Positions 8,496-54,558 of a stretch of 64,000 bases of DNA are shown here, piece after piece. The stretch is taken from NCBI GenBank assembly GCA_050306135.1, contig JBNLGQ010000029.1:43585-107584 (forward strand). The letters run 5' to 3'. Under the pieces are notes generated by a model. It saw only the letters and a list, made by a program, of their open reading frames with translations. It was not told the DNA's origin and ran no database searches. Every line of letters begins with the position of its first letter. The stretch's first letter is position 1. This DNA is from Gammaproteobacteria bacterium. GTDB lineage: Bacteria; Pseudomonadota; Gammaproteobacteria; GCA-001735895. Position numbers and translations under genes: made by a program.

Positions 8496-8516
8496 ATAAA
8501 CATTTTTATTATAAAT

Positions 8517-9701: not shown

Positions 9702-9905
9702 TAGGTGTGCAATAATTTTACTTGATAAGGTAGAAAGTATAATCATACCACTTTTTCAACATTTAAACGGATCTCGCACCCCGTACTATTGCAATATATA
9801 GAAAGCTTGAATTTAATATGTGAAATCTATTCGAGAATACATCGTTTACTATCTTCTTATACTAGTGAAAACCGTACGAATTTTTTAATATTAGATCTGA
9901 CAACT

Positions 9906-10325
9906 TCATTTCAACCTATTCCTGATACCACTAACAAAACCTCCAAGTACAGGAATATGCTCGTACAACATCGCACCAACATCATAATAATCGCGATGAA
10001 AATAAACCAGATCATCAAATTTTAAATGACTCACACCATCAACATGAATGGTTTTAGATTTATTCAAGCGAGGATGCTGGAAGTGCATGGTCCAGATGAC
10101 AAAAGCCTCCTGTTCCTGTTCTGTTACCTGATGGATTTCAAAATTACAATGTAATAAATCTTCCATCATGTTTTTGAAATATTTATCCAGTGCCTGTCTG
10201 CCCTTCATATGGTGTATAGGGTCTATGAACTCAATATCCTGGTGGTAAACCTGATTCAATCCGCTCAGGTCAGCACTGTCTAACTGTTGATAAAATTGAT
10301 TGAACTTTTCCAGTGTAGGATTCAT
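9906..10325 (-). CDS. NTF2/SnoaL-like fold protein, last gene of the photolyase operon
   Basis: 139 aa, assigned by pattern similarity to the SnoaL/ketosteroid-isomerase-like family. Its start lies 2 nt after the phr stop. Confidence 0.45.
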   Translation of the reverse strand: MNPTLEKFNQFYQQLDSADLSGLNQVYHQDIEFIDPIHHMKGRQALDKYFKNMMEDLLHCNFEIHQVTEQEQEAFVIWTMHFQHPRLNKSKTIHVDGVSHLKFDDLVYFHRDYYDVGAMLYEHIPVLGGFVSGIRNRLK

Positions 10326-38894: not shown

Positions 38895-40108
38895 GCCAAT
38901 ACATCTTACTCAATCGTATTAGAGTGCAAAATGCCAATGCGATAGCAGGCTTTACCTGGGGGTTTCCTGCGATAACGCATTTTCTTGGCTTTACCCATAA
39001 CCTGTCACGCAAACTAAGCCGGTCTGACAACTATTCCGGTATCAGCCTGACTGGTTGTGCAGTGATTGCGCATGAGCATCATGTGCATACCTATGGTAAA
39101 TATGGTGATCGATTCACTCAGGTTAAATCTTCATATATCTCAACACCTAAATTTGAAAAAGGCGTAATGAAAACGCCATCAATTATCGAAGAAGCAAAAA
39201 TGAACATGACGGTCTCTCTACTCATCAAGGTGGTGGGACGAATGGGTAATGCGACCTGGGTCGAACAGTTTACTACTTGGATAGAAAAGCAAAGCCATAT
39301 CCAGCGTTTGGCAGGCGGTACGATTTTAGACATCGCCGACGTAAAACTGCTTGATACCCACGAAAGGCGAGATCGTTACCAGCTTAAAGGTAAATTGTTG
39401 CCGGGCTTTGTACTTATGGATCGATCCAGCAGTTTGAAAAGCCGCTATCAGGTGTTGCAGAAAGAAAACCCCAACGCCGAATTACTAGACGCATGGCTGG
39501 ATTTTTCTGCATTCAAACAACAGGCTCGCCCAAAATACGATCAGATTTCAAAGTATCTGGACAAAGGCATTAAACAGGATGCAGCGACCTATGCCAGCTT
39601 GCTACACGATTGGCAAAAACACCTTGAGCATGTGCCTTATCAACAAGACAGCATCCCTGATTCATTGAAAGAGCATTTTTCAACACTTGATGCTAAAAAA
39701 TACAAGGCCTTGTTAGCGCAGTGGCAGCAATATCTGGAACCTAATGAGAAAACACCAGCCGATTGGGAGCGACTACCAAAACCCGAAGCCAGAGGTTATT
39801 TAGTGCCGTTGATGGTGGGCTACAAAGCTATCACCCCCGTTTACGACAATGCTGAAATTGCTAATACCCGCGATAGCGAAACCCCCGTTTGCTTTGTCGA
39901 GGCAGTACACAGTATTGGTGAATGGAAAAGTGCCCACCGTTTGCGCACGGAGGCTGATTTTGCCGAGAGTATTTGGCGCTATGACGACTATCAGGAACAT
40001 TGGTATTTGTGCAAGCAAGATATAGCACTTGAGACAATGGATGAACCTAACGAAACAACCACTGAAGAAGCAGTGATTAGTACCGACGATGATTATGAAG
40101 ATGACTAA
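38891..40108 (+). CDS. csy2: Csy2 / Cas5f, with an internal insertion and a polyacidic C-terminal tail
   Basis: It matches Csy2 in 'RIRVQNANAIAGFTWGFPAITHFLGF', 'LLPGFVLMDR', 'GYLVPLMVGYKAITPVY', and 'NTRDSETPVCFVEAVHSIGEWKSAHRL'. It is about 405 aa against about 327 in PA14 and ends in 'TTEEAVISTDDDYEDD'. Confidence 0.85.
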   Translation: MSQYILLNRIRVQNANAIAGFTWGFPAITHFLGFTHNLSRKLSRSDNYSGISLTGCAVIAHEHHVHTYGKYGDRFTQVKSSYISTPKFEKGVMKTPSIIEEAKMNMTVSLLIKVVGRMGNATWVEQFTTWIEKQSHIQRLAGGTILDIADVKLLDTHERRDRYQLKGKLLPGFVLMDRSSSLKSRYQVLQKENPNAELLDAWLDFSAFKQQARPKYDQISKYLDKGIKQDAATYASLLHDWQKHLEHVPYQQDSIPDSLKEHFSTLDAKKYKALLAQWQQYLEPNEKTPADWERLPKPEARGYLVPLMVGYKAITPVYDNAEIANTRDSETPVCFVEAVHSIGEWKSAHRLRTEADFAESIWRYDDYQEHWYLCKQDIALETMDEPNETTTEEAVISTDDDYEDD

Positions 40109-40117
40109 GGAGAAAGA

Positions 40118-41111
40118 AATGACGACCAAAGCGAAAGAAATTGACCTACCCAGTATGTTGGCATTTGAGCGAAAGCTGGAAGTGTCTGATGGACTGATGT
40201 TTGCTGGTAATTGGAGCGACCTTGCCGAAGAAAATGCTTGGGAGGCTATTAAGGTTGTGCCGCGTAAAAACCGCTCAACGCAAAGTGCTGCTGGCATTAA
40301 GGATGAGGAAAAATCTAAGCCAAACCCTGTTTCGGCAGATAATGATGATGCAAACCTGCCATATGACAAAGATACTCTAAAAGTCAGTTTCACTCTGCGT
40401 ATGATTGGGGATTTGGGCACTCCGTTCGGCTGCAATGACCCTGAATTCGAGAAAGCAATTCACAGCAAGGTAACTGAGTTTAAAGAACAAGGATTGAAAG
40501 AACTGGCACACCGCTATGCACAGAATATTGCCAGCGGGCGTTTCTTATGGCGTAACCGCATCTGTGCTGAAGAATTGCTGATTCAGGTCAGAATTAATCA
40601 TGGTGAGGATCTCATCGAACTTAATGGTTACGACTTCGCGTTAAATGATTTTGCGGCTAGCCGTCAAGACAACAAATTAGTCCAACTAACAGAGGCTATT
40701 TACCAAGGCTTGGTGGGTACACAAGATTTTGTTTTGCTGGAGGTTGATGCCTTTGTTCGCCTGGGCGCTGGTCAGCATGTGTTTCCATCGCAAGAAATGA
40801 ACATGGGCGATAAGAAAAAAGTGCTTTTCAAACTGGGAAAAGATAATAACCAGGCCGCTATGCATAGTGTGAAGTTAGGGAATGCTATTCGCACTATTGA
40901 TGATTGGTATCGCGAGAATGCTGAATTTCCGATTGCGGTAGAGCCCTATGGCTCAGTTACTCAGCGTGGCGAAGCCTACAGAAAAAGCAAAACAGACTTG
41001 TACACATTAATGTTGGACTGGGTGAATGATAAGCCTGTTGCAGACGAACAAAAATGCTATGTGTTAGCAAACCTGATACGTGGTGGCGTTTTTGGTGGAA
41101 AAAGTGAATAG
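40118..41111 (+). CDS. csy3: Csy3 / Cas7f, Cascade backbone subunit
   Basis: It is near-collinear with PA14 Csy3: 'LAFERKLEVSDGLMFAGNW', 'TLKVSFTLRMIGDLGTPFGCNDPEF', 'LAHRYAQNIASGRFLWRNR', 'VLLEVDAFVRLGAGQHVFPSQEM', 'IAVEPYGSVTQRGEAYR', and 'ANLIRGGVFGG'. The start is set at ATG 40118 behind an AGGAGA RBS. Confidence 0.9.
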
Positions 41112-41119
41112 GATCTAAG

Positions 41120-41671
41120 ATGAATCACTATTTCGAAATCAAAATACTACCCGACCCGGAGATACTGGACACAGTTCTGATGAACGCGGTTTACACCAAA
41201 CTCCACAAAGCCTTATGTGATCTGAACTCGACCGGTATTGGCGTTAGCTTTCCCAATAGGCAGAAGACTCTTGGCAATACGGTGCGATTACATGGTTCTG
41301 ATAAAGACCTGGATGACTTAATGAGGCTGAATTGGACAGGGGGTATGAGTGGATACTGCTCTATCAGTGATATCTTACCAGTACCTGATAATTCTAAGTT
41401 CCGCACCGTGTCGCGCAAGCAAACCACGATGAGTCAATCTAAGCTCAATCGGTTGTTAAAGCGTGGCTCCATCACTGAGGATGAGGTTAAAAATTACAAA
41501 GCGAAAATGTTTACCAAAGGTCTGGATAATCCTTATCTGGAATTACAAAGTGGTTCAAATGGACATAGACACCGTCGCTATATCGAATTTGGTGAGTTGT
41601 TAAACGAACCCGTCAGCGGCCAGTTTGACCAGTTCGGCCTATCCAAAACTGCGACTATCCCCTGGTTTTAA
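41120..41671 (+). CDS. csy4: Csy4 / Cas6f, pre-crRNA endoribonuclease
   Basis: 183 aa. 'MNHYFEIKILPDPE' parallels PA14 'MDHYLDIRLRPDPE'. 'IGVSFP' and the C-terminal 'YGLSKTATIPWF' (compare 'YGLSKGGFVPWF') are present. Confidence 0.9.
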   Translation: MNHYFEIKILPDPEILDTVLMNAVYTKLHKALCDLNSTGIGVSFPNRQKTLGNTVRLHGSDKDLDDLMRLNWTGGMSGYCSISDILPVPDNSKFRTVSRKQTTMSQSKLNRLLKRGSITEDEVKNYKAKMFTKGLDNPYLELQSGSNGHRHRRYIEFGELLNEPVSGQFDQFGLSKTATIPWF

Positions 41672-41985: not shown

Positions 41986-44653
41986 GTTCACTGCCGCACA
42001 GGCAGCTTAGAAAGGTGCCTTGGGCACGAGCAATCAATTTTGAGAGTTCACTGCCGCACAGGCAGCTTAGAAATGCCTCCAGCACCTTTTTATATTTATC
42101 ACCGAGTTCACTGCCGCACAGGCAGCTTAGAAAATAATATACTTTTGCTATATGAAGTTTCGGAGTTCACTGCCGCACAGGCAGCTTAGAAATTCGAGCT
42201 TAACGGTGTCACCCGCGTCGGCCAGTTCACTGCCGCACAGGCAGCTTAGAAATGGTTACGGTACCGCTCCGACATCACACGGACCGTTCACTGCCGCACA
42301 GGCAGCTTAGAAATATGCAAGTGCAACCTCGTTTACTGTTGTAGGGTTCACTGCCGCACAGGCAGCTTAGAAATATCGAATAAATAACCGCTATCTGGCG
42401 GAATTGTTCACTGCCGCACAGGCAGCTTAGAAAAAGCTATGGACACAGGGCAGAGGATTTTCCTCGTTCACTGCCGCACAGGCAGCTTAGAAAATTAACT
42501 ATAAACTCATGAGATGGCATGCAGGGTTCACTGCCGCACAGGCAGCTTAGAAATCGTGTTGCCTACGTATAGCCGCCATAACTTCGTTCACTGCCGCACA
42601 GGCAGCTTAGAAAATCGGCGTAGTCGATTGCTCGCTGTATCGGCCGTTCACTGCCGCACAGGCAGCTTAGAAAATTGGATGGCATCGCGTCATTTGAGTC
42701 TACAGGTTCACTGCCGCACAGGCAGCTTAGAAAAGTCAATGAAGCAGGGGTTGGTATAGCGATTGGTTCACTGCCGCACAGGCAGCTTAGAAACGGATGC
42801 GCATTCATTGAAAACAGCCCAATGCGTTCACTGCCGCACAGGCAGCTTAGAAATTTACTCATCTAATGAAAGAGCTGGGCGAATTGTTCACTGCCGCACA
42901 GGCAGCTTAGAAATCCTAATACTGATTGGCAGCTTGCGGCAACTAGTTCACTGCCGCACAGGCAGCTTAGAAAACCCACAGATACCATCTGTACGTGGAG
43001 TCATTGTTCACTGCCGCACAGGCAGCTTAGAAAACAGTAACCTCACATCAGAAATTCTGCAAACCGTTCACTGCCGCACAGGCAGCTTAGAAATGAACAC
43101 GCGACATTTGAGGATGGCGGGAATGGTTCACTGCCGCACAGGCAGCTTAGAAATTCTTCAATCGCATCGAGTACTGCGGTTACAGGTTCACTGCCGCACA
43201 GGCAGCTTAGAAATACAAAATGGAATACTTCATATATGACAACTGGTTCACTGCCGCACAGGCAGCTTAGAAAATTACCAGCAAAGACAGACTGCAGCTG
43301 ATTACGTTCACTGCCGCACAGGCAGCTTAGAAATGCTATAAAGGCAGCGTGGTGTTTTCAGTCGGGTTCACTGCCGCACAGGCAGCTTAGAAAATTGTCA
43401 ACGCCATGCAGCCAGCGTACCCACGGTTCACTGCCGCACAGGCAGCTTAGAAATCAATAGCCATTAGCTCCTTACGACGCATAATGTTCACTGCCGCACA
43501 GGCAGCTTAGAAATTGTTAGAGTCCCCGATAAACCGACTATACATGTTCACTGCCGCACAGGCAGCTTAGAAAATCAACTAGAGTATCTGCATCAGGTAA
43601 TTCTGGTTCACTGCCGCACAGGCAGCTTAGAAACCTACTGGACGCGATCATCACCAGCGAGTAACGTTCACTGCCGCACAGGCAGCTTAGAAACAGCAGA
43701 TCCAGCGTCAGATCGTTGTTATCGCGTTCACTGCCGCACAGGCAGCTTAGAAAACCTTCAGCATTTGCTGATAGCGACCCGACATGTTCACTGCCGCACA
43801 GGCAGCTTAGAAACAGTGGATTGCCGGTAGTACCGCACTCAACCCGTTCACTGCCGCACAGGCAGCTTAGAAATGTGTGTTCTGCACGCATTCAGAAAGA
43901 AAGAAGTTCACTGCCGCACAGGCAGCTTAGAAAATGTACCTAGTTCATCTAAAACTAAAAGCCCAGTTCACTGCCGCACAGGCAGCTTAGAAAAGCTCAG
44001 GACCCGCGACATCAGTGGGTACCGGGTTCACTGCCGCACAGGCAGCTTAGAAAAATTCAGATAAATGGTACTGTACGCGAATCGAGTTCACTGCCGCACA
44101 GGCAGCTTAGAAATCTGAAACAACATCTCTAGCATGTGTACCACCGTTCACTGCCGTACAGGCAGCTTAGAAACAAATTCCGTAATTAGTAGCAGAATTT
44201 TTAGCGTTCACTGCCGCACAGGCAGCTTAGAAAGTTAAGGTCTTTTGGCCAGGTCATCAGAAACAGTTCACTGCCGCACAGGCAGCTTAGAAATAGTAGA
44301 ATTAACTAGCTATATCATCGATAAAGTTCACTGCCGCACAGGCAGCTTAGAAAATTGATTCGCACAGCTCAAGGAATGTAATTACGTTCACTGCCGCACA
44401 GGCAGCTTAGAAATAGATAGGTTCGAGTCGCCGCGGACGCCCCTTGTTCACTGCCGCACAGGCAGCTTAGAAAAGTTTTTGATTGCACTCTGGCAAAACT
44501 TTTTAGTTCACTGCCGCACAGGCAGCTTAGAAAAAGTCGATTCAACTTTAGCAGTAGAACCATGCGTTCACTGCCGCACAGGCAGCTTAGAAAACAGTAC
44601 AATTTAAAACCAGTAGCCAGATTATGTTAACTGCCGCACAGGCAGCTTAAAAC
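41986..44653 (+). CRISPR. Type I-F CRISPR array: 45 copies of the 28-bp repeat GTTCACTGCCGCACAGGCAGCTTAGAAA with 44 spacers of 31-33 nt
   Basis: The repeats were counted directly: 60-nt periodicity from 41986 through 44626. The repeat has the I-F (Yersinia-type) stem 'CTGCCGCACAGGCAG'. One internal repeat carries a SNP (44146-44173, 'CTGCCGTACAGGCAG'). The last repeat (44626-44653) is degenerate: 'GTTAACTGCCGCACAGGCAGCTTAAAAC'. Confidence 0.97.
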
Positions 44654-45024
44654 CGGATATGGGTAAATCATTATGCATACATCGAATGGCCGGCAAGTGA
44701 GCGACTCATCTGCGACAGCATACCTGTCTGTTATATTGCTTGATAGCAGCTGTTATAGGATCCTTTCAAGGCGCCATATTGTTGAGTTGGCTATCACAAT
44801 TCAGGTGAAATTTTCTGAAGACGTTATTCATCTAACTGATCTGAATATCAATCCCAAAATCGATGGCTGCGAGAAATTGATTTTGTGAGAAAAGAAAAAA
44901 CACATTTTTTGTTTTTTGTGCACTGAGAATTCAGGGATGAATTATTCAGGTCTCTCCCAAATAAACCATTTTTATCAAACTGTCATAATCCCCCTATAAG
45001 CTTGAATCGTTTAAATTAATTAGT

Positions 45025-46782
45025 GTGAAAGGCATGATCAATGTCGAGGCAATGCTGGATAATTTTTTACCGGACTTTAGAAACAAAAAGAAACGTCTGT
45101 ATAAAACAACAGTAGCTGTATTAAAAAAGATCCTGCATCAGGATGAAATCAATCAGTTTATTGACAGCCATAAACACCTTGAAGGCGTGGAGTTTCTGGA
45201 TGCGGTGCTGGACCATTTTGATTTTAAATATAGTCTGTCCAATCGCGACCGCGCTAATATCCCCGCACAGGGGCGTGTCATTATTGTGGCGAATCATCCA
45301 TTAGGTTCTCTGGATGGGCTGGCTTTATTGAAAATGGTTTCCGAGATCCGTCCTGATGTGAAAATTGTGGCGACTACCGTGCTGAGTCAGGTTAAACCGC
45401 TGGAGAATCTGTTTCTTAGCGTGGATAACCTGTCGAGTAAAGCGAGCCATATTGCCAGCCTGAAAAAGATTCTGGCTGCCTTGCAGCAGGAACAGGCGGT
45501 GATTATGTTTCCTACGGGAGAGGTTTCCCGCATTCGTCCACAGGGTGTGCGTGATGGCAAGTGGAAAACGGGCTTTGTCAGCATGGCTTACAAATCTAAC
45601 TCACCAGTGGTTCCTGTTTTCATTAATGGGAAGAATTCTACGCTGTTTTATAGCATGTCTACTCTGTATAAACCATTGGGTACCCTGATGCTGGTGATGG
45701 AGATGTTTAATAAGCAGGATCAGGAAATATCTTTTCGCGTGGGTAAACCAATTCCTGTTAATTCAATGAAGTTGCTGGATCTGCCACCTAAAAAAGTTGC
45801 AAAGCGGATGCGTAAGCAGGTTTATCGTTTGGCAAAAAATTTTAAGAAGCCACTATTCGAAACCATTGAAAATATTGTGCATCCGGTTAATCGTAAAAAT
45901 ATCCGCGATGAGCTTAAGCAATCTGAGTTTCTGGGTGCCACTCAGGATGGTATGGAAATCTATTTATTTGACTACCGATCAAATTCCAGTGTGATCCGTG
46001 AAATAGGAAGGTTAAGAGAGCTGTCGTTTCGACAGGTGCATGAAGGTACAGGCAAATCTATCGATGTTGATGAGTTTGATCGTTACTATCGCCATCTGGT
46101 GTTATGGGATGACAAGCAACTGGAGATCGTTGGCACTTATCGTATTGGTGAAGGTGCGCGTATCCTGGCGCAACATGGCATACAGGGGTTTTATACCAAT
46201 ACACTGTTTGAGTTACAGGGCTGTATGGTGGGTTATCTTGAAAAATCAATTGAACTGGGGCGTAGTTTTATCCAGCCACGTTACTGGGGTAAGCGTAGTT
46301 TGGATTACCTTTGGTATGGTATAGGTGCTTATCTTCAGAAACACCCGCAGGTTGAATATATGATTGGTCCTGTCACCTTGAGTGCTTCCTACCCTGAACA
46401 GGCGAAGCATGAAATTGTAAACTTCTATCAGCAATTATTTGGCAATAGCGATAATCTGGTTAAACCCAGACTGCCATATGATTACCCGGTTAGCAGTGAC
46501 TATGCTGAGTATCAGCAGGTATCTCAGGAATCAGATTATAAGCAGGCTTATTCACGTTTGAAAGTGAAGCTGGATGAGTTAGGGGTCAGAGTACCGACCC
46601 TGTTCAAACAGTATGTTGAGCTATGTAAGCCGGGTGGTTGTGAATTTCTGGGATTCAATGTGGATCCGGAATTTTCAAACTGTATAGATGCGATGATACT
46701 GGTACATATTGATGCGGTTTATGAAAAGAAGCGAGATCGTTATATCAATGTACATAATGTTAAAGTTGAGCAAGCTGCTTAG
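45025..46782 (+). CDS. Bifunctional acyltransferase: N-terminal PlsC-type (HX4D) domain fused to a C-terminal OlsB/GNAT-like N-acyltransferase domain. It is OlsF-like and a candidate ornithine/amino-lipid synthase.
   Basis: 585 aa with an 'VIIVANHPLGSLDG' HX4D motif and a 'FPTGE' block typical of lysophospholipid acyltransferases. The roughly 280-aa C-terminal half is of the hemolysin/OlsB-like acyltransferase type ('GTYRIGEGARIL'). This architecture matches the published OlsF of Serratia and Flavobacterium as I recall it. Confidence 0.5.
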   Translation: MKGMINVEAMLDNFLPDFRNKKKRLYKTTVAVLKKILHQDEINQFIDSHKHLEGVEFLDAVLDHFDFKYSLSNRDRANIPAQGRVIIVANHPLGSLDGLALLKMVSEIRPDVKIVATTVLSQVKPLENLFLSVDNLSSKASHIASLKKILAALQQEQAVIMFPTGEVSRIRPQGVRDGKWKTGFVSMAYKSNSPVVPVFINGKNSTLFYSMSTLYKPLGTLMLVMEMFNKQDQEISFRVGKPIPVNSMKLLDLPPKKVAKRMRKQVYRLAKNFKKPLFETIENIVHPVNRKNIRDELKQSEFLGATQDGMEIYLFDYRSNSSVIREIGRLRELSFRQVHEGTGKSIDVDEFDRYYRHLVLWDDKQLEIVGTYRIGEGARILAQHGIQGFYTNTLFELQGCMVGYLEKSIELGRSFIQPRYWGKRSLDYLWYGIGAYLQKHPQVEYMIGPVTLSASYPEQAKHEIVNFYQQLFGNSDNLVKPRLPYDYPVSSDYAEYQQVSQESDYKQAYSRLKVKLDELGVRVPTLFKQYVELCKPGGCEFLGFNVDPEFSNCIDAMILVHIDAVYEKKRDRYINVHNVKVEQAA

Positions 46783-47270
46783 TTTGTAGCTTCATTCCCT
46801 TACTCAGCTCAGGCATCCTGCTTCGCTCTAACACCTATACCGTGTAGGTGTCCTTCGTGGGTGCAGATCCTGTAATTCTGCCGATGGAAAAATGAATAGC
46901 TGACATATAATCATTCCAGTTGAACATACTCTATTGATCCAATGTGGTTATTCCACATAAGATGCGAGGATTAACGGGCTCGTTGATATATAGCTGCCGT
47001 TCGAGTAATTAAGGGAATTAAGTAAACTATCCTCGAAATCGCTCCGGAATTGAATTTGCCCATCACTCCGACACATAGCCAAAATAAAACTAATTTAAAA
47101 GTGTCTAAATTCTTTACAGGTAAAAATCCAGCGGTATCGGTTTTTGTAAAAAAAATATACACCTAAAGTTAGACGGAAAATGGTATTCCATTGAAACTAT
47201 GGGACTAAAGGATTGCGGTACCTTAATTGCATGAAGGATTTATTGTGTAAACTGGAAGGAGTGAGGAACT

Positions 47271-47972
47271 ATGAAAAAAAGAATAACTAGTACTGTAGGT
47301 GTATTCACTGTTTTAACATTGATCACGATAAATGCTTATGCGGCCCCTTTTCGTCTACTGGGTGAAGTGGCCGATACCGGTGCTGCAAGCGCTGGCAGTG
47401 AGTCTGCTATTTATAACTATGATACCAATGCTGATATGCACTCTGGCACTTACAGCAGTTGGTCTTATACAGGATTCGACTGGAACTCAAGCTATTCAAC
47501 TGCAGGATTGGCATACGATGGCAAATACCGCCTAATAGGTGAAGTGGCCAACACTGGTGCTGCAAGCGCAGGTAATGAATCTGCTATTTATACCTATGAT
47601 TCCTACGCGGATATGCAGTCGGGCAATTACAGCAGCTGGTCTTATACAGGATTTGACTGGATTTCAAGTTATTCAACCGCGGGATTGGCATATGATGGCA
47701 AATACCGTCTGTTAGGTGAAGTAGCCGATACCGGTACTGCAAGCGCAGGTAGTGAATCTGCTATTTATACCTATGATACGTTCGATGATATGCTGTCTGG
47801 AACTTATAGTAGCTGGTCCTATACAGGGTTCGACTGGATTTCAAGTTATTCAACCGCGGGATTGGCATACGAATCTATACCAACATCTGAAGTACCAGAA
47901 CCAACGAGCCTTTTACTTATGGGGCTAGGGTTAGTAGGACTAGGATTTGCTCGTAAAAAACGAATCGTATAG
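47271..47972 (+). CDS. Secreted PEP-CTERM protein with three tandem repeats of about 59 aa
   Basis: It has a signal peptide. It then has three near-identical units ('RLLGEVADTGAASAGSESAIYTYD...SGTYSSWSYTGFDWISSYSTAGLAYDGKY'). The C-terminal sorting signal is 'VPEPTSLLLMGLGLVGLGFARKKR' (PEP + TM + basic). Confidence 0.75.
   Translation: MKKRITSTVGVFTVLTLITINAYAAPFRLLGEVADTGAASAGSESAIYNYDTNADMHSGTYSSWSYTGFDWNSSYSTAGLAYDGKYRLIGEVANTGAASAGNESAIYTYDSYADMQSGNYSSWSYTGFDWISSYSTAGLAYDGKYRLLGEVADTGTASAGSESAIYTYDTFDDMLSGTYSSWSYTGFDWISSYSTAGLAYESIPTSEVPEPTSLLLMGLGLVGLGFARKKRIV
47346..47880 (+). repeat. Three tandem direct repeats of about 177 bp inside the PEP-CTERM gene
   Basis: The DNA-level periodicity corresponds to the three protein repeats. 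There are only a few substitutions between copies. Confidence 0.8.
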
Positions 47973-47983
47973 TCTCATAACAA

Positions 47984-48008
47984 CCCCGCCTGGTGCGGGG
48001 TTTTTTTA
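47984..48008 (+). terminator. Rho-independent terminator downstream of the PEP-CTERM gene
   Basis: 'CCCCGCCTGGTGCGGGG' forms a GC-rich hairpin followed by TTTTTTT. Confidence 0.8.
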
Positions 48009-48231
48009 TTTCTAAACCTTAGCTATCGATTATTTTTATTTTGTGAATGTGCAACCAACTAGAGTTGATAGGGAGCGTTAATAGTTGCCTGATCTCATTT
48101 ACCTGAACGATCGTTTTTAGACATTGCAAAAATTGAGCTAGTCTTTATTGAAGGGTTATAGTTGGTATATTTTTAACTGTAGTCGCGCACAATAACAATG
48201 ACTGCTTCGAACGATTTACTTAAAGGGTCCA

Positions 48232-48852
48232 TCATTTTGTTGTCAGGCTTTCATCATACCAGTCACTCATATCATCAATCATTTCACCCTTAATCAGGTA
48301 ATAAGGTGCTTTATGGTAAATATAGAAATCATGGAATGGATCGGTCAATATTTTGCTAAACCATACCAGACCCGATTGAATGCCCATGATGAAGAACAGA
48401 TGAACAGTTCTAAAGATTAATGCACCAGCGCCTATAAAAAGCCACAGCACTGAGGTGTTATAAATAAACTCATTCAGCGAGGTGTGAGGCTGTAGTAGAC
48501 CGAAAAAGTCAGGGTTGAAATACAGTACAAGAGGGGCGGCTACCCATACTGATAACAGTACAACCTTTCTACGTAGATTATAACCCACCTTAATACTTTC
48601 CTTGTATGCCTGACTGGCATCGTTGATCTCGTCGTACTCCAACGGTTCAAAGAAAAAATGTCCGCTTTGACGTAATACCATGGCCAGTAACCAACCGATC
48701 ATTACGGCTGCCACGGGATTGATAAAGATCAGTACGTAACTGGCCATAAAGCAGATACAGCTCAAAAAGTGTAAAAACTGATTGATTCGGTTCTGGTGAT
48801 AGTAACGATGATCATCCCAGCGTTGCTGACGTAGTTCCTGCATAAAAGTCAT
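48232..48852 (-). CDS. DUF962 / Mpo1-like integral membrane protein, last gene of the lipid operon
   Basis: 206 aa with four TM helices. It has an N-terminal 'YYHQNRINQFLH' (HxxN-type) segment and a 'GHFFFEP' motif, resembling the Mpo1/YGL010w family as I recall it. Confidence 0.45.
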   Translation of the reverse strand: MTFMQELRQQRWDDHRYYHQNRINQFLHFLSCICFMASYVLIFINPVAAVMIGWLLAMVLRQSGHFFFEPLEYDEINDASQAYKESIKVGYNLRRKVVLLSVWVAAPLVLYFNPDFFGLLQPHTSLNEFIYNTSVLWLFIGAGALIFRTVHLFFIMGIQSGLVWFSKILTDPFHDFYIYHKAPYYLIKGEMIDDMSDWYDESLTTK

Positions 48853-48894
48853 AATGATTACCTCTGTTTAATAGTTTATTAAGTGATGAAGTTT

Positions 48895-49773
48895 TTATTC
48901 TGAAATCGATGGCCTTTTTCTGAGTAGCGCCTGCCCCATCAGGATGGGAGTGTCGGTCTGTATATGGTCGAGTAACTGATAGTTAGATGAAGCAAATACA
49001 ATGATGGTTGAGCCATGCTGAAAGTAGCCCATTTCTTCGCCTTTACGATAACTTGCATTGCAGTTTAAATGGTTAGGGCCCTGGTATTTCAAATCCAGTG
49101 TTTCATTCAGGCAGTGGAATTTCATACTCGCCACCAGAATAGCGGCAACCGGCACCATTACCATGCAGTCATCTTGTTTACCCGTATGTAGTTCGATGAC
49201 TGCACGCTCATTTTTGCAATACAGCTTTTCAATGCGTTTAAGTGCTATGGGATTTACGTTCCAGGTGTCGCCGGAGATGTAGGTAATATCCGATACCGAA
49301 CAATCCTGCGGGGCATGGAATCGGTGGTACATGCTGGATTTCAGGCGCAGGGTGACAAAGATGCCATTACTGAGTTTTTTACAAAGACTGGTATCAGGTA
49401 TTAAGTCACTCAGTTCATAGGGGTAGCCCTTGGCCTGAAATAATGACTGGCCTTCAATATTTCCGCAGGCACCAACAATTGCATCACAGGGGCTGGTAAT
49501 AATGTCTTTATTTATATCCACAGGACGACTGCCTGGCTTTAACTGGCGTATAAAACAATCATGCAGGCTGCTGAAGTGTTGCTGTTGTGCTTCATTCAGA
49601 TTTAAATCGCTAGCAAATAGCTTCCATACGGCAATGGAAAAGCGTGTTAGCCATGGATTTTTAAGCTTGCTATACCAGCCCATAAACTGCGTTAGCAGAC
49701 GACGCGGAATACGATTTGTCAGCAGGAAGTTCAGCTGTTCCTGTTGAGTTAAGTGGCGGATTAATGATGTCAT
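48895..49773 (-). CDS. psd: Phosphatidylserine decarboxylase proenzyme
   Basis: It matches E. coli Psd in 'LFQAKGYPYEL', 'YHRFHAP', 'NERAV', and the self-cleavage site 'GYFQHGSTIIVF' (the G-S-T pyruvoyl-forming motif). Confidence 0.8.
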   Translation of the reverse strand: MTSLIRHLTQQEQLNFLLTNRIPRRLLTQFMGWYSKLKNPWLTRFSIAVWKLFASDLNLNEAQQQHFSSLHDCFIRQLKPGSRPVDINKDIITSPCDAIVGACGNIEGQSLFQAKGYPYELSDLIPDTSLCKKLSNGIFVTLRLKSSMYHRFHAPQDCSVSDITYISGDTWNVNPIALKRIEKLYCKNERAVIELHTGKQDDCMVMVPVAAILVASMKFHCLNETLDLKYQGPNHLNCNASYRKGEEMGYFQHGSTIIVFASSNYQLLDHIQTDTPILMGQALLRKRPSISE

Positions 49774-49787
49774 CGTGTGACAGATGC

Positions 49788-52508
49788 TCAGGCAACAGAA
49801 CGCGTTGCAAGTGGTTCCAGCACTATTGCTGACTCTTCACCCAGGCCCATATCTTCAGCAAACTGTTGCATGATCGGTTCTGCCTGATAATCTTCGCTGC
49901 GTAACCTGGCATTACCTTTCATTTTATAGCGCAGATCTGCATCGCTAAAATATTTGATGATGAGTTCAGCCATGTCATGCATATCCTCTGCGAGGAATCC
50001 GCTGACTCCATGCTGGATGATATTTTTCGGTCCTTTGCAATTATAGGAAACTACCGGCATACCATTAACAAAGGATTCCAGGATGACGTTACCAAAGGTG
50101 TCAAAGCGTGATGGGAAGACTTTAAGATCCAGTCCAGCATAAAGCTGGGACATGCGAGTTTTGTCAACCCAGCCCAGATACAGGGCTTCAGGGAATAGCT
50201 TTTTCAGTTCTTCTTCAGCTGGCCCAGATCCAGCAATGACCATGCGCACATCGGGTATGGCATTTTTTACCATGCGGTAAATTTTGGGTAATTCAAAGAT
50301 GCCTTTTTCCTTGCTGATACGGCTGGCAAATAGCATGACCTGAGTGTCTTCAGTTGCATCTTCAAATAGTGTGGCTTTGTCTACAGGTATTATAGAGACA
50401 TCCCTTGCCTGAGTATGATGCGCAGTTAGTAATACCTTATCCTCGTCCAGTTGCATCTGGTGACCGGTAAGCCAGTCTCTATGGTCATCATTAAGTACAA
50501 ATACACCAGCGAACTGTTGATAGAAGAAACGCAATATTCTGCGTAGCCGATCAATTTCATGCTGATTTAAGTCGGTTGTGTTATGGATGAAATCGAGCCA
50601 GTCGGTATGCATGAAAAAGTAGGCAGGCACATTAAACATATGTTTGATGAATAAGGCTGCAAATGCCATGGGCCCTTCGGTGGAGCAGACAATGCGATCA
50701 TAGCCACCTGCATAAAAGATGCGTGCAATCTCCATAAAATCCGGGATGCGTATCTCCTGTTCGCCGAATTCAGAGAGTGTCAAACTGGTTAAGGGACGTA
50801 TCACATGTAAATGTGGTGCTGCTTCGGCATCAGCGTGGCAGATGAGAAAATCGATGGGTAGATCAGCCTGCTGTATATGTTTCAATTTACCCGATAAGGA
50901 ACTGGATACACCATTTTTATCCAGCAAGGTGTCCGTAAGATAGAGCGCCCGCCTGGGGTGATGGCTGGTACCAATATGGTCGGCAAACTCATTCAGGAAG
51001 CGTCTGTTCTGATACAGTAAACGGGTACTAGCCAGCGTTGTCCCTAGTAGTATCACGCCTACTAAAAAAGGAAACGATAAATTATCCAGTAGCGAAGAAA
51101 AGTTGTAACAACTCATCCCCGGTTTATTGCTTTTACCCCCAAAGATTAACTCTGTGAGCTGGCTGGGTACTTCAAACTTGCGTGTCAGCTCTTCGCTGGA
51201 AAATGATTTCAACTTGTATTCGCTGGTACTACTGGATGTGGTTTTCAGGCGCTTTATAACCAACAGGTTGAGTCCTTTAAAAAGTGCTGGTATCGCTTCG
51301 TTAACGGTCTGGATGAAAACTTCAGTAGATTTGTTTCTACTATCTGCAATGTTTTCCAGATGTTGAATACAGAAGCGATAATCTTTTTTGATTTTCCATT
51401 TAACCAGTTTATTGGGTTTTTTACCCTGTAGGGCATCGTGGATAAACTTGAAGAACTTCTGTGTGTTTTTATGTTTCTGCATCTCCAGTAACAGATTACT
51501 GATAAGGAAACAGGCCAGTTTGTCGGACACTTCACCACGATGAAACATAATGCGCAATAAGCCGGGGTCCTGGATATGCGTAGCAACCTGAGAGAAGTAA
51601 TCCAGCAGAGCGATATTCAGTTTCTGGTTTTCAGCAACAAGGCCATAGGGAGCAATATTGCCTTTGCGAATGGCTTCCAATGCCAGTGTCGAAGCCGTAT
51701 CGGTTTTTAATCGCTGCTTGAGATTTGGGATATATAGATAACTGCCAGATTGACCGGCAAACATACCCATATGATCATCTGAGCCACCGCTTAGTACTTT
51801 TGCCTGATCTGGGTCCACACCAAATTCAGCTGGGTTAAGATTATGCTTGCGTCCGTATGCGCGTATTTTTTCTGCGCTCAGGCTTTTAATCCATTTCAGG
51901 GTTAGTACCGATTGCCATTGATCTCGTTGGCCGTTGACGACTTCAAAACGTTGAAACATAACCGCCAGTTTTTCGAACAGGGAGAGATTGATTTTGTCAT
52001 TACGTGTATAAAAATACAGTGGATGCGGCAGAATAACGGGAATGTCACATTTATGTGCATAACGCAGAAACTGATAGATGTTGTCACGTTTATGATTGAG
52101 CTCCTTTTCCTGATGACGATTAAAACCATAGGCCAGCACATGTACGAATAAATCATATTCAGGAAAGTGGCAGGTAAACTCAGCGGCAGTTAAAACATCT
52201 TCACCCTGATCCTGTAATTCCCAGCAGGAATTCGCATTATTATGATTGGTGATGGTAATGACATCACAGTGACTTTGTTTAAGTTGTTTGACCAGCTTTT
52301 TGGTTTTCAGCCAGGTTTCGGGCAGGCCAAGAATGCGACCCCATAGCTCATCGGGTACATCGCTGTTTTTATCATGGCAGTGCAGGTCAATCTTAAGGCA
52401 GTCTTCGCGTTTGAAGCGGTTGGATTCGTTGAGTAGATAAGCATTGAACTCACGGGTTAAGGAATTTCTAAATTCACTTACTGATTCGTTTGATGTAGGT
52501 AATATCAT
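49788..52508 (-). CDS. Fusion protein: N-terminal PHP-family metal-dependent phosphoesterase domain, a central TM segment, and a C-terminal GT4 (GT-B) glycosyltransferase domain
   Basis: The PHP motifs appear in order: 'IDLHCHD' (HxH), 'ITNHNN', 'EF..HFPEYD', 'VHVLAYG', 'LPHP', and 'GGSDDHMG' (DxH). There is a TM helix 'FPFLVGVILLGTTLA'. The C-terminal GT4 domain has 'VMLFASRISKEKG', 'VRMVIAGSGPAEEEL', and 'FGNVILESFVNGMPVVS' (E-X7-E region). Confidence 0.65.
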   Translation of the reverse strand: MILPTSNESVSEFRNSLTREFNAYLLNESNRFKREDCLKIDLHCHDKNSDVPDELWGRILGLPETWLKTKKLVKQLKQSHCDVITITNHNNANSCWELQDQGEDVLTAAEFTCHFPEYDLFVHVLAYGFNRHQEKELNHKRDNIYQFLRYAHKCDIPVILPHPLYFYTRNDKINLSLFEKLAVMFQRFEVVNGQRDQWQSVLTLKWIKSLSAEKIRAYGRKHNLNPAEFGVDPDQAKVLSGGSDDHMGMFAGQSGSYLYIPNLKQRLKTDTASTLALEAIRKGNIAPYGLVAENQKLNIALLDYFSQVATHIQDPGLLRIMFHRGEVSDKLACFLISNLLLEMQKHKNTQKFFKFIHDALQGKKPNKLVKWKIKKDYRFCIQHLENIADSRNKSTEVFIQTVNEAIPALFKGLNLLVIKRLKTTSSSTSEYKLKSFSSEELTRKFEVPSQLTELIFGGKSNKPGMSCYNFSSLLDNLSFPFLVGVILLGTTLASTRLLYQNRRFLNEFADHIGTSHHPRRALYLTDTLLDKNGVSSSLSGKLKHIQQADLPIDFLICHADAEAAPHLHVIRPLTSLTLSEFGEQEIRIPDFMEIARIFYAGGYDRIVCSTEGPMAFAALFIKHMFNVPAYFFMHTDWLDFIHNTTDLNQHEIDRLRRILRFFYQQFAGVFVLNDDHRDWLTGHQMQLDEDKVLLTAHHTQARDVSIIPVDKATLFEDATEDTQVMLFASRISKEKGIFELPKIYRMVKNAIPDVRMVIAGSGPAEEELKKLFPEALYLGWVDKTRMSQLYAGLDLKVFPSRFDTFGNVILESFVNGMPVVSYNCKGPKNIIQHGVSGFLAEDMHDMAELIIKYFSDADLRYKMKGNARLRSEDYQAEPIMQQFAEDMGLGEESAIVLEPLATRSVA

Positions 52509-54229
52509 AGCTCGCTAACCTCTTCGGCTTTGGGCAGGCCTGTGTAGCCAGTTTTCGGTTTTATCCATCTGGAAAGCACGGGAAAGCGAGCAGCAATCAT
52601 TTCTTTCAACATTATTCGCTTGATGGCTTTATTACTCAGATTGGGGTTATGCCACCACCAACCATCATTTTTCATCTGCCTGGCAGCAGCAATAAATAAA
52701 TCAACTACCTTCAGAAAATCTTCATCGCTGAAATTATGGCTCATGATGATTCGGCCACTACCAACCCAGCTGAGACTCAGTCCCTGCGCTTTCAGATAGA
52801 ACTGAAACATCCAGTTATAACGCGATGGCTGGGTATACAGAATGGTCCAGATAGACATGAGGTTGGCAATTCTAACGGGCAGGCCTTCGTCATGCAGACG
52901 CTTGTTGAGCAGGCTGACGCGCGCGTTCCATAGCTCATCGGCATGTTGATAATTGTTTTGATACTCAGGCTGCTGAATGCGCGTTAAGAACTGATGCATG
53001 CAGGCCATCACATAAGGATGTGAATTAAAGGTTCCGCGTGCGAAAGAGATATCTACAGGCTGTTCAGGTTTATAGCGTTTCATCAATGCATGACTGCCAC
53101 AGACCACACCTACAGGCAGTCCGCCACCCAAGGTTTTGCCGTAGGTAACTATGTCTGCCTGTATGCCAAAATACTCCTGAGCACCACGATAACCCAGACG
53201 AAAACCGGTAAACACTTCATCAAAGATTAAAACGATAGCTCGTTCGATACAGACTTCACTGACCTGCTTTAACCACCGACTATAGGCTTTTCGATCAAAG
53301 TGAGCGCTACGGTCGCTGTTAACCAATGAAGCATCGCTGGAAGCATCGGCGTTAGGATGTAAACCCTGTAAGGGATTGATCAGTACACAGGCGATATCAT
53401 TACGTGTACGTAACACCTTTAATGTTGTGTCGCTCATATCCTGTAGTGTGTATACATCATGGCTGGCACGCTGGTTACCTATGCCTGGTTGTACACCATC
53501 CCACCAGCCGTGGTAGGCGCCGCATAAACGAACCAGATGCGTTTTTCCCGTGTGGTAACGTGCCAGACGAACCGCCTGCATCACAGCCTCGGTGCCGGAC
53601 ATGTGAAAAGATACTTCATCCAGGCCGGATATCTTTTTTAAGCGCTCAACATTGCTTTTAATAATGGGGTGATAGGCCCCAAGTACTGGACCCATATCTT
53701 TCACCATTTCCATGCCGTCCTGCATGCACTGTTTGTAAAAATCATAACCAAACACGTTGACCCCGTAAGAGCCAGTCAGGTCATAGCTCCAGTTACCATC
53801 CAGGTCTTTAACCTTGACACCTTTTGATTCCTTCACGGCATTGGGCAGGGTTAATTGGGTAGCGAGGTATTTTCTATAAGGAAAGGGAACTCGATACTGG
53901 TTGGTGAATTCAACATCTGAAATACTGTCCTGCACTGAGTGATTGAATTCAATGCCTTTGAGCATGTGTTGATTAAAATGCTTTTTGAGTCTGTTCAGGG
54001 CCTGACGGCGTTGCTGAGTAATATTCTGCGGGGCAGCATCGCTACAGAAGAAATTAACTTCATTGTATTCAAAGTAGGGGATGAGCCTTGCAACACGGCG
54101 TGACATTTTTGAATGTCCGCGTAGCGATGGATGTTTGGCGCGTGAAAGGCGTAAGCGAATCCATAGTCTATAGGATAGATACAATGCAATAAACAGGATG
54201 AAAATATTTTGTAGTGTAATCTCGGGCAT
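52505..54229 (-). CDS. Membrane-anchored class-III (GSA-aminomutase-like) PLP-dependent aminotransferase, first gene of the lipid operon
   Basis: 574 aa. The N-terminal TM helix is 'IFILFIALYLSYRLWI', followed by an extension of about 100 aa. The class-III core has 'FDEVFTGFR' and the PLP-lysine motif 'YGKTLGGGLPVGVV'. It overlaps the downstream gene by 4 nt. Confidence 0.7.
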   Translation of the reverse strand: MPEITLQNIFILFIALYLSYRLWIRLRLSRAKHPSLRGHSKMSRRVARLIPYFEYNEVNFFCSDAAPQNITQQRRQALNRLKKHFNQHMLKGIEFNHSVQDSISDVEFTNQYRVPFPYRKYLATQLTLPNAVKESKGVKVKDLDGNWSYDLTGSYGVNVFGYDFYKQCMQDGMEMVKDMGPVLGAYHPIIKSNVERLKKISGLDEVSFHMSGTEAVMQAVRLARYHTGKTHLVRLCGAYHGWWDGVQPGIGNQRASHDVYTLQDMSDTTLKVLRTRNDIACVLINPLQGLHPNADASSDASLVNSDRSAHFDRKAYSRWLKQVSEVCIERAIVLIFDEVFTGFRLGYRGAQEYFGIQADIVTYGKTLGGGLPVGVVCGSHALMKRYKPEQPVDISFARGTFNSHPYVMACMHQFLTRIQQPEYQNNYQHADELWNARVSLLNKRLHDEGLPVRIANLMSIWTILYTQPSRYNWMFQFYLKAQGLSLSWVGSGRIIMSHNFSDEDFLKVVDLFIAAARQMKNDGWWWHNPNLSNKAIKRIMLKEMIAARFPVLSRWIKPKTGYTGLPKAEEVSEL

Positions 54230-54315
54230 GCTCGCGGACCGGAATATAATTTGCGAGACGCTAACATGTGAAAATGACAGTCTGGTTTCAATGTTGAAGT
54301 TTCGGTATTTTTAAT

Positions 54316-54397: not shown

Positions 54398-54558
54398 TCC
54401 TGTTTTTTTCGTTCCCATGCTCTGAGATGGAATGCGTATGAACTGGCGTGGCAATGTGACTTTTCTTTTAGATTCTGTAACAAAAATTTAATAATTCCAT
54501 AACATTTTCGACATATTTAAAGGCTAAAGTGTGCCGCATTAAATTTTCGAGAAGTGTA

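Follow-up and report, generated by a model that had tools for sequence, protein, structure and literature searches.

Gene content of the locus

A 64,000-nucleotide stretch of a gammaproteobacterial contig (JBNLGQ010000029.1), here called the window, carries genes with membrane-lipid chemistry between a CRISPR array and a set of phn genes, raising the question of whether they serve to replace membrane phospholipids when phosphate is scarce. The original prediction described five such genes as one lipid-remodelling cluster. All five open reading frames were found exactly where it had placed them (Table 1), and its domain assignments were borne out by profile searches, although the PHP domain was recognized only through its predicted structure and the Mpo1-like call was borderline. 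As a cluster of five, however, the proposal held only in part, since the conserved unit is a four-gene operon (or, in 5 loci, the fusion gene alone), with olsF as an occasional neighbour. Between the four minus-strand genes there are only overlaps or gaps of 4, 14 and 42 bp, and they therefore form an operon. All four encoded proteins contain membrane anchors or membrane-binding segments.

Table 1. Features of the locus (window coordinates)
Feature	Position	Strand	Remarks
CRISPR array	41986-44653		
Pho box ahead of olsF	44969..44986	+	Predicted; TTTTTAT CAAA CTGTCAT; TATAAG 8 nt later
OlsF, bifunctional ornithine-lipid synthase	45025..46782	+	Separate transcription unit, facultative neighbour of the operon
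PEP-CTERM gene	47271-47972		Between olsF and the operon; missing from the original prediction
Mpo1-like/DUF962 protein, 206 aa	48232..48852	-	Divergent, His-rich integral membrane protein
Phosphatidylserine decarboxylase (Psd) paralogue, 292 aa	48895..49773	-	Predicted pyruvoyl proenzyme
GT4 glycosyltransferase domain of the 906-aa fusion	49839..50948	-	aa ~521-890; GT-B, retaining
All-helical linker of the fusion	50949..51638	-	aa ~291-520, one hydrophobic helix at aa ~470-498; from secondary structure of the full-length model and hydrophobicity scan, no Pfam hit
PHP (polymerase and histidinol phosphatase) metallo-phosphoesterase domain of the fusion	51639..52406	-	aa ~35-290
Class-III (AMT/HemL-like) PLP aminotransferase, 574 aa	52505..54229	-	Membrane-anchored
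Extended -10 element	54258..54266	-	TGtTAGCGT; hexamer begins 10 nt past the Pho box
Pho box of the four-gene operon	54274..54291	-	TTGAAAC CAGA CTGTCAT; predicted from sequence
phnCDE-GH..KLM	from 54529		Divergent from the operon

Conservation of the operon

The neighbourhoods of 83 related loci were surveyed. The order aminotransferase – PHP::GT4 – Psd-like – Mpo1-like was found in roughly 70 of them, a strong conservation of the four-gene set. Beside the fusion, the aminotransferase was present in 73 loci, Psd in 77 and the Mpo1-like gene in 74, and missing operon genes were mostly explained by contig ends. Genomes of 384 species contained relatives of the fusion, and each operon protein retained 58-75% identity across Gamma- and Zetaproteobacteria. 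No further gene family was common to more than 10 of the 83 loci. Two recurrent neighbours, a 262-aa protein with six transmembrane segments (10 loci) and a 276-aa protein, matched nothing in Pfam or NCBIfam.

The 585-aa OlsF scored 804.8 bits against NF052615 (equivalog cutoff 620; aa 4-575) and contained the N-terminal O-acyltransferase (PF19576/PF01553) and C-terminal N-acyltransferase (PF13444) domains. It adjoined the operon in only 7 of the 83 loci, five of these from distant lineages with 41-45% identity, and was rejected as an operon member. The PEP-CTERM gene was likewise rejected, as it is not conserved across loci. After OlsF, the commonest immediate neighbour was UDP-glucose 6-dehydrogenase, found in 5 loci and of two types, one of them the TuaD type; in two loci it was co-directional and directly downstream. 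These dehydrogenase neighbours point to a glucuronosyl lipid.

Promoter and phosphate control

Pho boxes were scored as matches of at least 10 of 14 positions to CTGTCATnnnnCTGTCAT, the E. coli consensus, on the sense strand between -130 and -25. Such a match was present in 33 of 69 loci (48%) and in 28 of 566 control upstream regions (5%; Fisher p 1e-19, the loci being interrelated), and in 30 of 59 loci once similar promoters had been removed. In most related loci, two to four 7-bp half-sites with an 11-bp period occupied an equivalent position upstream of the first gene, and four half-sites formed two tandem boxes in many of them. When the loci were compared, the half-sites had fixed peak positions, confined to the sense strand, and a TGnTAnnnT element was kept at the same spacing from the box. 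The operon has predicted direct repeats for PhoB binding, with a period of 11 bp and lying about 10 bp ahead of a -10 element, the geometry of PhoB-dependent promoters in E. coli. A simple count of Pho boxes over the whole window was uninformative (6 found, 6.5 expected), so weight is given only to the positional, cross-locus comparison.

The same promoter preceded the stand-alone PHP::GT4 gene in four of five loci (L019, L072, L073 and L075); no such promoter could be made out in the fifth, L017. In L075 the fusion is flanked by PhoX and a 5'-nucleotidase, and in L002 PhoBR and Ppx are nearby. The window's olsF also has a Pho box, and olsF is Pho-regulated in Serratia and Vibrio (PMC12971839). 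The original prediction had drawn its link to phosphate stress from adjacency to the phn genes. That argument proved weak, phnCDE being adjacent in just 1 of the 83 loci, but the link itself was upheld by the Pho boxes across lineages, the PhoX, OlsF and PhoBR neighbours and the box ahead of olsF. From these promoter sequences, the four genes are best read as a PhoB-controlled, phosphate-starvation operon.

The PHP::GT4 fusion

The predicted structure of the N-terminal domain is a distorted (beta/alpha)7 barrel, the PHP fold. All nine PHP metal ligands (HxH, D/H, H, E, H, H, DxH) are present, as H43, H45, D50, H89, E110, H123, H162, D244 and H246, which were invariant or at least 90% conserved among 30 homologues. 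By sequence, the N-terminal 518 aa gave no useful Pfam hit even at E<=10 and did not reach the PF02811 gathering score, and distant relatives scored no more than 16.8-24 bits (cutoff 26.4). A PHP-core profile searched against the PDB matched a PHP phosphoesterase (3e0f) at only E 0.12, and a PDB sequence search with the whole fusion returned GT4 chains only.

The C-terminal domain matched Glycos_transf_1 above cutoff and has a GT-B fold and the acidic-x7-Glu motif of GT4 enzymes. Its matches were generic. The top ones were BshA, SdgA, MshA and PimA, with BshA and MshA as the nearest structural and profile neighbours; several of these four use UDP-GlcNAc and non-lipid acceptors. Weak matches included TuaC and LPS and EPS transferases, and none of the NCBIfam lipid-glycosyltransferase equivalogs was reached (Mgs scored 29 bits, cutoff 400). 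The gene partners of more distant PHP::GT4 relatives are quite different and include an aquaglyceroporin-type MIP gene beside one relative and an ~800-aa protein that matched nothing in Pfam or NCBIfam.

The three accompanying proteins

Behind a hydrophobic N-terminal helix, the aminotransferase matched PF00202 (119 bits, cutoff 30.5; aa 129-510). Its best PDB match was the aminotransferase domain of MycA (6kfm, E 3.6e-47, aa 117-523), and HemL matched at 1e-32. The motif VTYGKTLGGG, with the Schiff-base lysine of class-III aminotransferases, was at least 95% conserved in 69 orthologues, and its YGK aligned with that of MycA. Identity with HemL was rejected on equivalog scores of 169-171 bits against cutoffs of 398-527. 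A kinship with ethanolamine-phosphate phospho-lyase was also rejected, as none was among the PDB matches at E<=1e-10, and the protein's relatives included none with a known activity on ethanolamine headgroups. An amino-sugar headgroup had been suggested earlier; the protein is nearest to the MycA beta-ketoacyl domain and HemL, not to sugar aminotransferases.

The 292-aa protein belongs to the phosphatidylserine decarboxylase family (PF02666, 183 bits; TIGR00163, 164.4 bits against a cutoff of 111.75), and falls below both the proteobacterial and the Bacillus equivalog cutoff. It aligned to E. coli Psd (6l06, E 1.6e-27), N-terminal membrane helices included. The SPCDA, MYHRFHAP and HGST motifs were at least 95% conserved, and the Asp-His-Ser triad and G-S cleavage site were present.

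The 206-aa protein scored 23.4 bits against PF06127 (cutoff 24) over profile positions 7-66 of 95, and all 25 of 25 orthologues matched this family at E<0.01 (best 2.9e-6). Residues H15, H19, H28, H65 and H174 were invariant. Sequence and profile searches of the PDB found no relative.

Comparison with known systems

A lipid-remodelling operon of PlcP and Agt occurs in SAR11, roseobacters, Agrobacterium and Pseudomonas. There, under Pho control, the GT4 enzymes Agt/GTcp act after the phosphoesterase PlcP and produce Glc- and GlcA-diacylglycerol (PMC8231724, PMC4796936). The pairing of a Pho-box-linked metallophosphoesterase with a GT4 enzyme is common to both operons, and the association with UDP-glucuronate supply seen here fits the GlcA-diacylglycerol product of Agt (PMC4796936, PMC8231724). 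The two differ in that PlcP is calcineurin-like (a Mn metallophosphoesterase) whereas a PHP fold is predicted here, and Pfam detected no metallophos domain in any operon protein. Moreover, the two activities are fused here through a helical linker of ~230 aa, and the aminotransferase, Psd paralogue and Mpo1-like protein are predicted to be co-transcribed with them. The earlier suggestion that the fusion is a functional analogue of PlcP plus Agt is reasonable, Agt being a GT4 enzyme as well (PMC8231724), and the fused core is best read as analogous to that system and not a member of it.

The window's OlsF is a full family member preceded by a Pho box as in Serratia and Vibrio, but its gene is separate and outside the conserved operon. 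Among solved structures, the best relative of the 574-aa protein is the MycA (mycosubtilin/iturin) domain, with a full-length alignment and the catalytic lysine in common. However, the MycA domain is embedded in a PKS-NRPS, and its substrates are beta-ketoacyl chains bound to carrier proteins, while the 574-aa protein stands alone and has a membrane anchor at its N-terminus and a conserved extension of ~100 aa. The Psd paralogue has the family, membrane-binding helices, triad and self-cleavage site in common with E. coli Psd, a housekeeping enzyme, but is divergent and lies in a predicted Pho-regulated operon. With yeast Mpo1, a 2-hydroxy fatty acid dioxygenase of the DUF962 family, the 206-aa integral membrane protein shares a weak, consistent profile match over a His-rich N-terminal region of ~60 residues; it stays just below the family cutoff, and its C-terminal two thirds are unmatched.

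Proposed function and alternatives

The operon probably exchanges phosphorus-containing membrane lipids for sugar lipids, and we give an even chance to the fuller reading in which it is activated by PhoB and remodels membrane lipids from the cytoplasmic face of the inner membrane. The PHP domain, as a trinuclear-metal phosphoesterase, would produce diacylglycerol from phosphatidic acid or a phospholipid. The GT4 domain would then use a UDP-sugar, with UDP-glucuronate or UDP-glucose as the most likely donor, to glycosylate the diacylglycerol, yielding a phosphorus-free glycolipid. The Psd paralogue, aminotransferase and Mpo1-like protein would be an accessory set, present in most lineages, for a lipid headgroup bearing an amine or amino acid. 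In the simplest scheme using all the enzymes, Psd would convert phosphatidylserine (PS) to phosphatidylethanolamine (PE), the PLP enzyme, aided by the putative oxygenase, would strip the amine of PE, and the phosphatidyl or diacylglycerol product would be handed to PHP::GT4. The Psd-like protein, which has retained the N-terminus for membrane binding and the catalytic triad found in E. coli Psd, is consistent with a lipid context, as are the anchor of the aminotransferase, the hydrophobic helix of the fusion, the membrane-integral Mpo1-like protein and the OlsF neighbours.

It is unlikely that the five activities form one linear new route from aminophospholipids to glucuronosyl (or glucosyl) diacylglycerol that dispenses with phospholipase C. 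In such a route Psd would make PE from PS, the PLP enzyme would take the ethanolamine nitrogen by transamination or elimination, thereby saving it, the His-rich Mpo1-like oxygenase would help to free phosphatidate, PHP would release the phosphate and GT4 would cap the diacylglycerol. If true, this would be a new way of dismantling a phospholipid headgroup, at work in hundreds of Gamma- and Zetaproteobacteria of marine and freshwater habitats.

Some observations count against lipid remodelling. A second Psd has no obvious use where phospholipids are destroyed, the aminotransferase is nearest to MycA and HemL, the GT4 matches are generic, and the partners of distant relatives differ. The combination of GT4 and phosphatase also typifies pathways in which a small acceptor is glycosylated and then dephosphorylated, such as MshA/MshA2 and sucrose-phosphate synthase/phosphatase (SPS/SPP).

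Such a soluble or headgroup-like small-molecule pathway, with GT4 glycosylating a phosphorylated acceptor, the fused PHP removing the phosphate and the other three enzymes converting a 2-hydroxy-acid moiety through a 2-oxo acid and an amino acid to an amine, seems quite improbable to us. Glycosyltransferase-phosphatase pairs and fusions are typical of these pathways, the GT4 domain is closest to BshA and MshA, a distant relative adjoins the MIP gene, and the order oxidase, aminotransferase, pyruvoyl decarboxylase would be chemically coherent. MshA/MshA2 and SPS/SPP likewise couple a retaining GT-B glycosyltransferase to a phosphatase, but they yield soluble products with HAD-type or unknown phosphatases and are neither Pho-regulated nor membrane-anchored, whereas all four proteins here have anchors or segments that bind the membrane. 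Lipid remodelling is also the better fit to Pho control and to the neighbouring OlsF and PhoX genes, and the only substrates known for the Psd family are lipids.

There is a small chance that the operon instead spares phosphate by remodelling a surface glycoconjugate and not glycerolipids. PHP would then remove phosphate from lipid A, LPS core or a polymer precursor, and GT4 would substitute uronic acid or another sugar, much as teichuronic acid takes over from teichoic acid, or galacturonate from the phosphate of lipid A. The predicted Pho control, the UDP-glucose dehydrogenase neighbours (one of TuaD type), the weak matches to TuaC, LPS and EPS transferases and the PEP-CTERM gene next to the operon in the window would all suit it. 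However, no conserved association of the operon with a flippase, polymerase, initiating transferase or LPS gene was found, the PEP-CTERM gene itself lacks conservation, OlsF is the commonest annotated neighbour, and the intact membrane-binding and catalytic motifs of Psd point to glycerophospholipid headgroups. It is very unlikely that the PHP domain is a metal-dependent oxidative enzyme like PsfC and not a hydrolase, the operon then oxidizing a lipid or sugar with no release of phosphate.

Significance

Replacement of phospholipids by bacteria at scarce phosphate shapes the phosphorus demand of the ocean, and the known bacterial route, PlcP plus Agt, is best documented in Alphaproteobacteria. 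Full-text literature searches found no description of the four-gene set, and its lipid-remodelling route is probably previously undescribed. Carriers include many marine and freshwater bacteria, among them Alteromonadales, Marinobacter, Halieaceae, Methylococcales, sulfur oxidizers and iron-oxidizing Zetaproteobacteria, and in many of them the operon is a strong candidate for filling the equivalent role. The question is directly testable, since some carriers are in culture, including Marinobacter, Paraglaciecola, Colwellia, Psychromonas and Nevskia soli. If the lipid-remodelling reading is true, the operon would bring a new phosphoesterase fold into lipid remodelling and provide a marker gene of phosphorus stress for metagenomes. 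It would also give the membrane aminotransferase, the second Psd and the bacterial Mpo1-like protein a testable physiological context.

Gene organization of the operon and its surroundings

Every open reading frame of the original prediction, which had placed a five-gene phosphorus-stress lipid-remodelling module between a CRISPR array and the phn (C-P lyase) operon, was found at the exact coordinates it had given. The four minus-strand genes run head to tail with a 4-bp overlap at the first junction and gaps of 14 and 42 bp at the next two, indicating that they form one transcription unit.

Features of the CRISPR-phn interval (window positions)
Feature	Position	Strand	Remark
CRISPR array	41986-44653		45 repeats, 28 nt, 60-bp period
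olsF	45025-46782	+	OlsF (ornithine-lipid synthase) family member
PEP-CTERM gene	47271-47972		between olsF and operon; absent from the original prediction
Mpo1-like gene	48852-48232	-	fourth gene of operon
Psd-like gene	49773-48895	-	third gene of operon
PHP::GT4 fusion gene	52508-49788	-	second gene of operon
Aminotransferase gene	54229-52505	-	first gene of operon
Predicted Pho box of operon			TTGAAAC-CAGA-CTGTCAT, upstream of aminotransferase gene; lies with the -10 in 54258-54291
Extended -10 of operon			TGtTAGCGT, 7 nt after Pho box; hexamer starts 10 nt after repeat
phnC, D, E, G, H, K, L, M	from 54529		divergent to operon

Within the PEP-CTERM sorting-signal protein gene, a 177-bp (59-aa) unit is repeated in tandem, with 2.9 copies at 85% identity (47361-47872); no such gene was conserved beside the operon in other loci. 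The repeats of the CRISPR array (GTTCACTGCCGCACAGGCAGCTTAGAAA, Rfam CRISPR-DR4) are identical, the last one alone being degenerate, and the large ORFs before the array (33026-41671, one of 1125 aa) resemble cas genes and are candidates for that role. The G+C content was 0.32-0.34 at 6-10 kb (6001-10000) compared to about 0.44 elsewhere, and 0.51 at 16-20 kb (16001-20000), with a 1434-aa ORF at 15963-20267; these swings may point to DNA of foreign origin and to a large gene of unusual composition.

Conservation and gene neighbourhoods

Full-length homologues of the fusion were found in more than 120 database clusters with 63-96% identity, and relatives occurred in 384 species when one genome per species was scanned. 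The carriers were mainly Gammaproteobacteria, including Paraglaciecola, Colwellia, Psychromonas, Psychrosphaera, Marinobacter, Halioglobus/Haliea, Nevskia, Cycloclasticus, Achromatium, Methylococcales and Aliikangiella, together with the Zetaproteobacteria Mariprofundus and Ghiorsea. Marinobacter metalliresistant CuT 6, Colwellia sp. RE-S-Sl-9, Paraglaciecola arctica and Nevskia soli DSM 19509 are among the carriers available in culture. The window showed 96% identity to a gammaproteobacterial MAG. Operons with 61-64% identity were also found on contigs binned as Flavobacteriales, Rhodospirillales, Margulisiibacteriota and Binatia (loci L035, L062, L067 and L068), which are either mis-binned gammaproteobacterial contigs or cases of recent horizontal transfer.

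Among the 83 related loci examined, the gene for the fusion was adjoined by that for the aminotransferase in 73, for Psd (phosphatidylserine decarboxylase) in 77 and for the Mpo1-like protein in 74, and contig ends accounted for most of the missing genes. The gene order was invariant, with each protein 58-75% identical to that of the window, confirming the conservation that a neighbourhood survey had been meant to check. Since clustering of all flanking ORFs gave no further family in more than 10 loci, the operon is a self-contained unit in varying surroundings. The fusion was present without the other three genes in five loci, and different partners were seen with more remote PHP::GT4 relatives (29-47% identity, or 30-35% over the PHP core alone), indicating a core that consists of the fusion and an accessory set, specific to this clade, made up of the other three genes.

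OlsF was the commonest annotated neighbour of the operon (7 loci, five from distant lineages). The next commonest immediate neighbour was UDP-glucose 6-dehydrogenase, whose product is UDP-glucuronate; it was found in 5 loci as two different types and was co-directional and directly 3' of the operon in two of them. Among genes outside the operon, the neighbour found most often encodes a protein of about 262 aa with about six hydrophobic helices (L006:13293-14081, L007:5054-5899, L074:12714-13511 and seven other loci), which had no match in Pfam or NCBIfam; it occurred in 10/83 loci, on both sides of the operon and on both strands. Immediately 5' of the distant PHP::GT4 genes of two further loci, L087 and L088 (43% and 29% identity to the fusion, respectively), lies a gene for a soluble protein of about 770-830 aa (L087:4486-6984, L088:4687-7005); the two proteins share the motifs PTELIEQG and WVWPYW, had no family match and may serve the PHP::GT4 core as an alternative partner.

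Proteins of the operon and OlsF

The aminotransferase (574 aa) has a hydrophobic N-terminal helix, a basic stretch and a class-III fold (PF00202, 119 bits). Its closest solved structure was the aminotransferase domain of MycA of mycosubtilin synthase (E 3.6e-47, aa 117-523), clearly ahead of the glutamate-1-semialdehyde aminomutases (1e-32). No NCBIfam equivalog cutoff was reached, and the Schiff-base lysine motif was kept in the orthologues. For the 906-aa fusion, a Pfam search with the first 520 residues gave no match; the nine canonical PHP metal ligands showed full or near-full conservation across 30 homologues, and a helical region of about 230 residues with one hydrophobic helix separates the PHP and GT4 domains. 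The Psd-like protein (292 aa) belongs to the phosphatidylserine decarboxylase family (183 bits) and passed the TIGR00163 cutoff, while the lineage-specific Psd equivalog cutoffs were not reached. Its alignment with E. coli Psd takes in the membrane-binding N-terminus, and the Asp, His and Gly-Ser-Thr motifs are retained. The fourth protein (206 aa) is an integral membrane protein with invariant histidines and is plausibly Mpo1-like/DUF962, as judged from a profile score of 23.4 bits, just under the cutoff of 24, and from matches in all 25 orthologues tested. The OlsF assignment held, with NF052615 at 804.8 bits (cutoff 620) and both acyltransferase domains found.

Predicted phosphate regulation

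Adjacency to phn had been taken as ground for phosphate-stress control; this was not conserved, as phnCDE adjoined the operon in 1/83 loci. The phosphate-stress link itself found much better support in positioned Pho-box repeats in promoters across lineages. The spacing from repeat to hexamer in the operon promoter is that of PhoB-dependent promoters in E. coli, and the Pho box with an extended -10 was found again in most lineages. Many loci, among them those of Paraglaciecola, Psychromonas, Marinobacter and Halieaceae, have four half-sites at 11-bp spacing. The sense-strand distribution of TGTCA[TC] showed sharp peaks at two positions (bins with 21 and 11 occurrences vs 1-5 elsewhere), whereas the antisense strand was flat.

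A Pho box was called where the sense strand between -130 and -25 matched the E. coli consensus at 10 or more of its 14 specified positions. Such matches were obtained in 33/69 operon loci compared to 28/566 regions upstream of the loci's other genes (Fisher p 1e-19), and in 30/59 after removal of sequence-sharing promoters, counts that overstate independence because the loci are related. The lineages span two classes, however, and their flanks differ. Where the fusion was the first or only gene, repeats lay directly 5' of it in 4/5 loci (L019, L072, L073 and L075), and none were apparent in the fifth, L017. The fusion of L075 lies between PhoX and a 5'-nucleotidase, and phoBR and ppx are close by in another locus, L002. 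Counted over the window as a whole, Pho-box-like words were no more frequent than expected by chance; the argument rests on position and conservation, not on word count. Taken from sequence comparison, the case that the operon is conserved and under Pho control is strong.

The olsF gene of the window has its own predicted box, TTTTTAT-CAAA-CTGTCAT, followed by TATAAG, consistent with the Pho regulation known for olsF from Serratia and Vibrio (PMC12971839). Pho-box-like half-sites with an 11-bp period (CTGTAAC AAAA ATTTAAT AATT CCATAAC ATTT TCGACAT) were also observed at 54475-54514, just 5' of phnC. Only 14 nt separate the last of them from the annotated GTG at 54529, so that phnC may in fact start further downstream; each of the two operons thus seems to have its own Pho boxes within the 300-bp divergent intergenic region.

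Proposed function

All four operon products are equipped for work at the membrane, and one belongs to the Psd family, which to our knowledge acts only on lipid substrates. We regard a lipid function of the operon as moderately well supported. Remodelling of LPS or of a surface polymer to spare phosphate would agree with the Pho control and with the UDP-glucose 6-dehydrogenase neighbour, but is unlikely, there being no conserved export or polymerisation gene and the Psd being left unexplained. Slightly less probable is a soluble glycoside pathway, with which membrane anchoring is at odds despite the glycosyltransferase-plus-phosphatase pattern and the resemblance to BshA/MshA. A non-hydrolytic, PsfC-like role of the PHP domain would be compatible with its predicted structure alone; the sequence motifs match the hydrolase pattern, and we regard this role as improbable.

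The lipid function has a precedent in PlcP and the GT4 enzyme Agt/GTcp, a known bacterial remodelling pair under Pho control, in which PlcP converts PE or PG to diacylglycerol and Agt/GTcp forms glucosyl- and glucuronosyl-diacylglycerol (PMC4796936, PMC8231724). Read most economically, PHP::GT4 would perform both steps in one polypeptide. The likeness is a functional analogy of phosphoesterase plus GT4, whereas the phosphoesterase fold of the single-chain fusion is unrelated; because the defining PlcP fold is absent, the operon is not counted as a PlcP-Agt member.

Any specific reaction can be proposed only weakly for the operon enzymes. In a catabolic scheme, Psd would convert PS to PE, the PLP-dependent aminotransferase would take off the PE amine, the putative Mpo1-like oxygenase would aid release of phosphatidate, and the product would pass to PHP::GT4. 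In a biosynthetic scheme, an amine headgroup would arise from a 2-hydroxy-acid moiety by oxidation, transamination and decarboxylation. Specific homology backs neither scheme; the aminotransferase resembles enzymes aminating beta-keto acyl chains, and Psd requires a free alpha-amino acid.

No account of the four-gene set or of PHP::GT4 fusions was found in full-text literature searches, whose coverage left out most subscription journals. Pho-regulated lipid remodelling by a phosphoesterase plus GT4 is already known, and we rate the operon as a probable variant of it, part of which could be new chemistry. The catabolic scheme, if true, would use every activity of the operon and save nitrogen.
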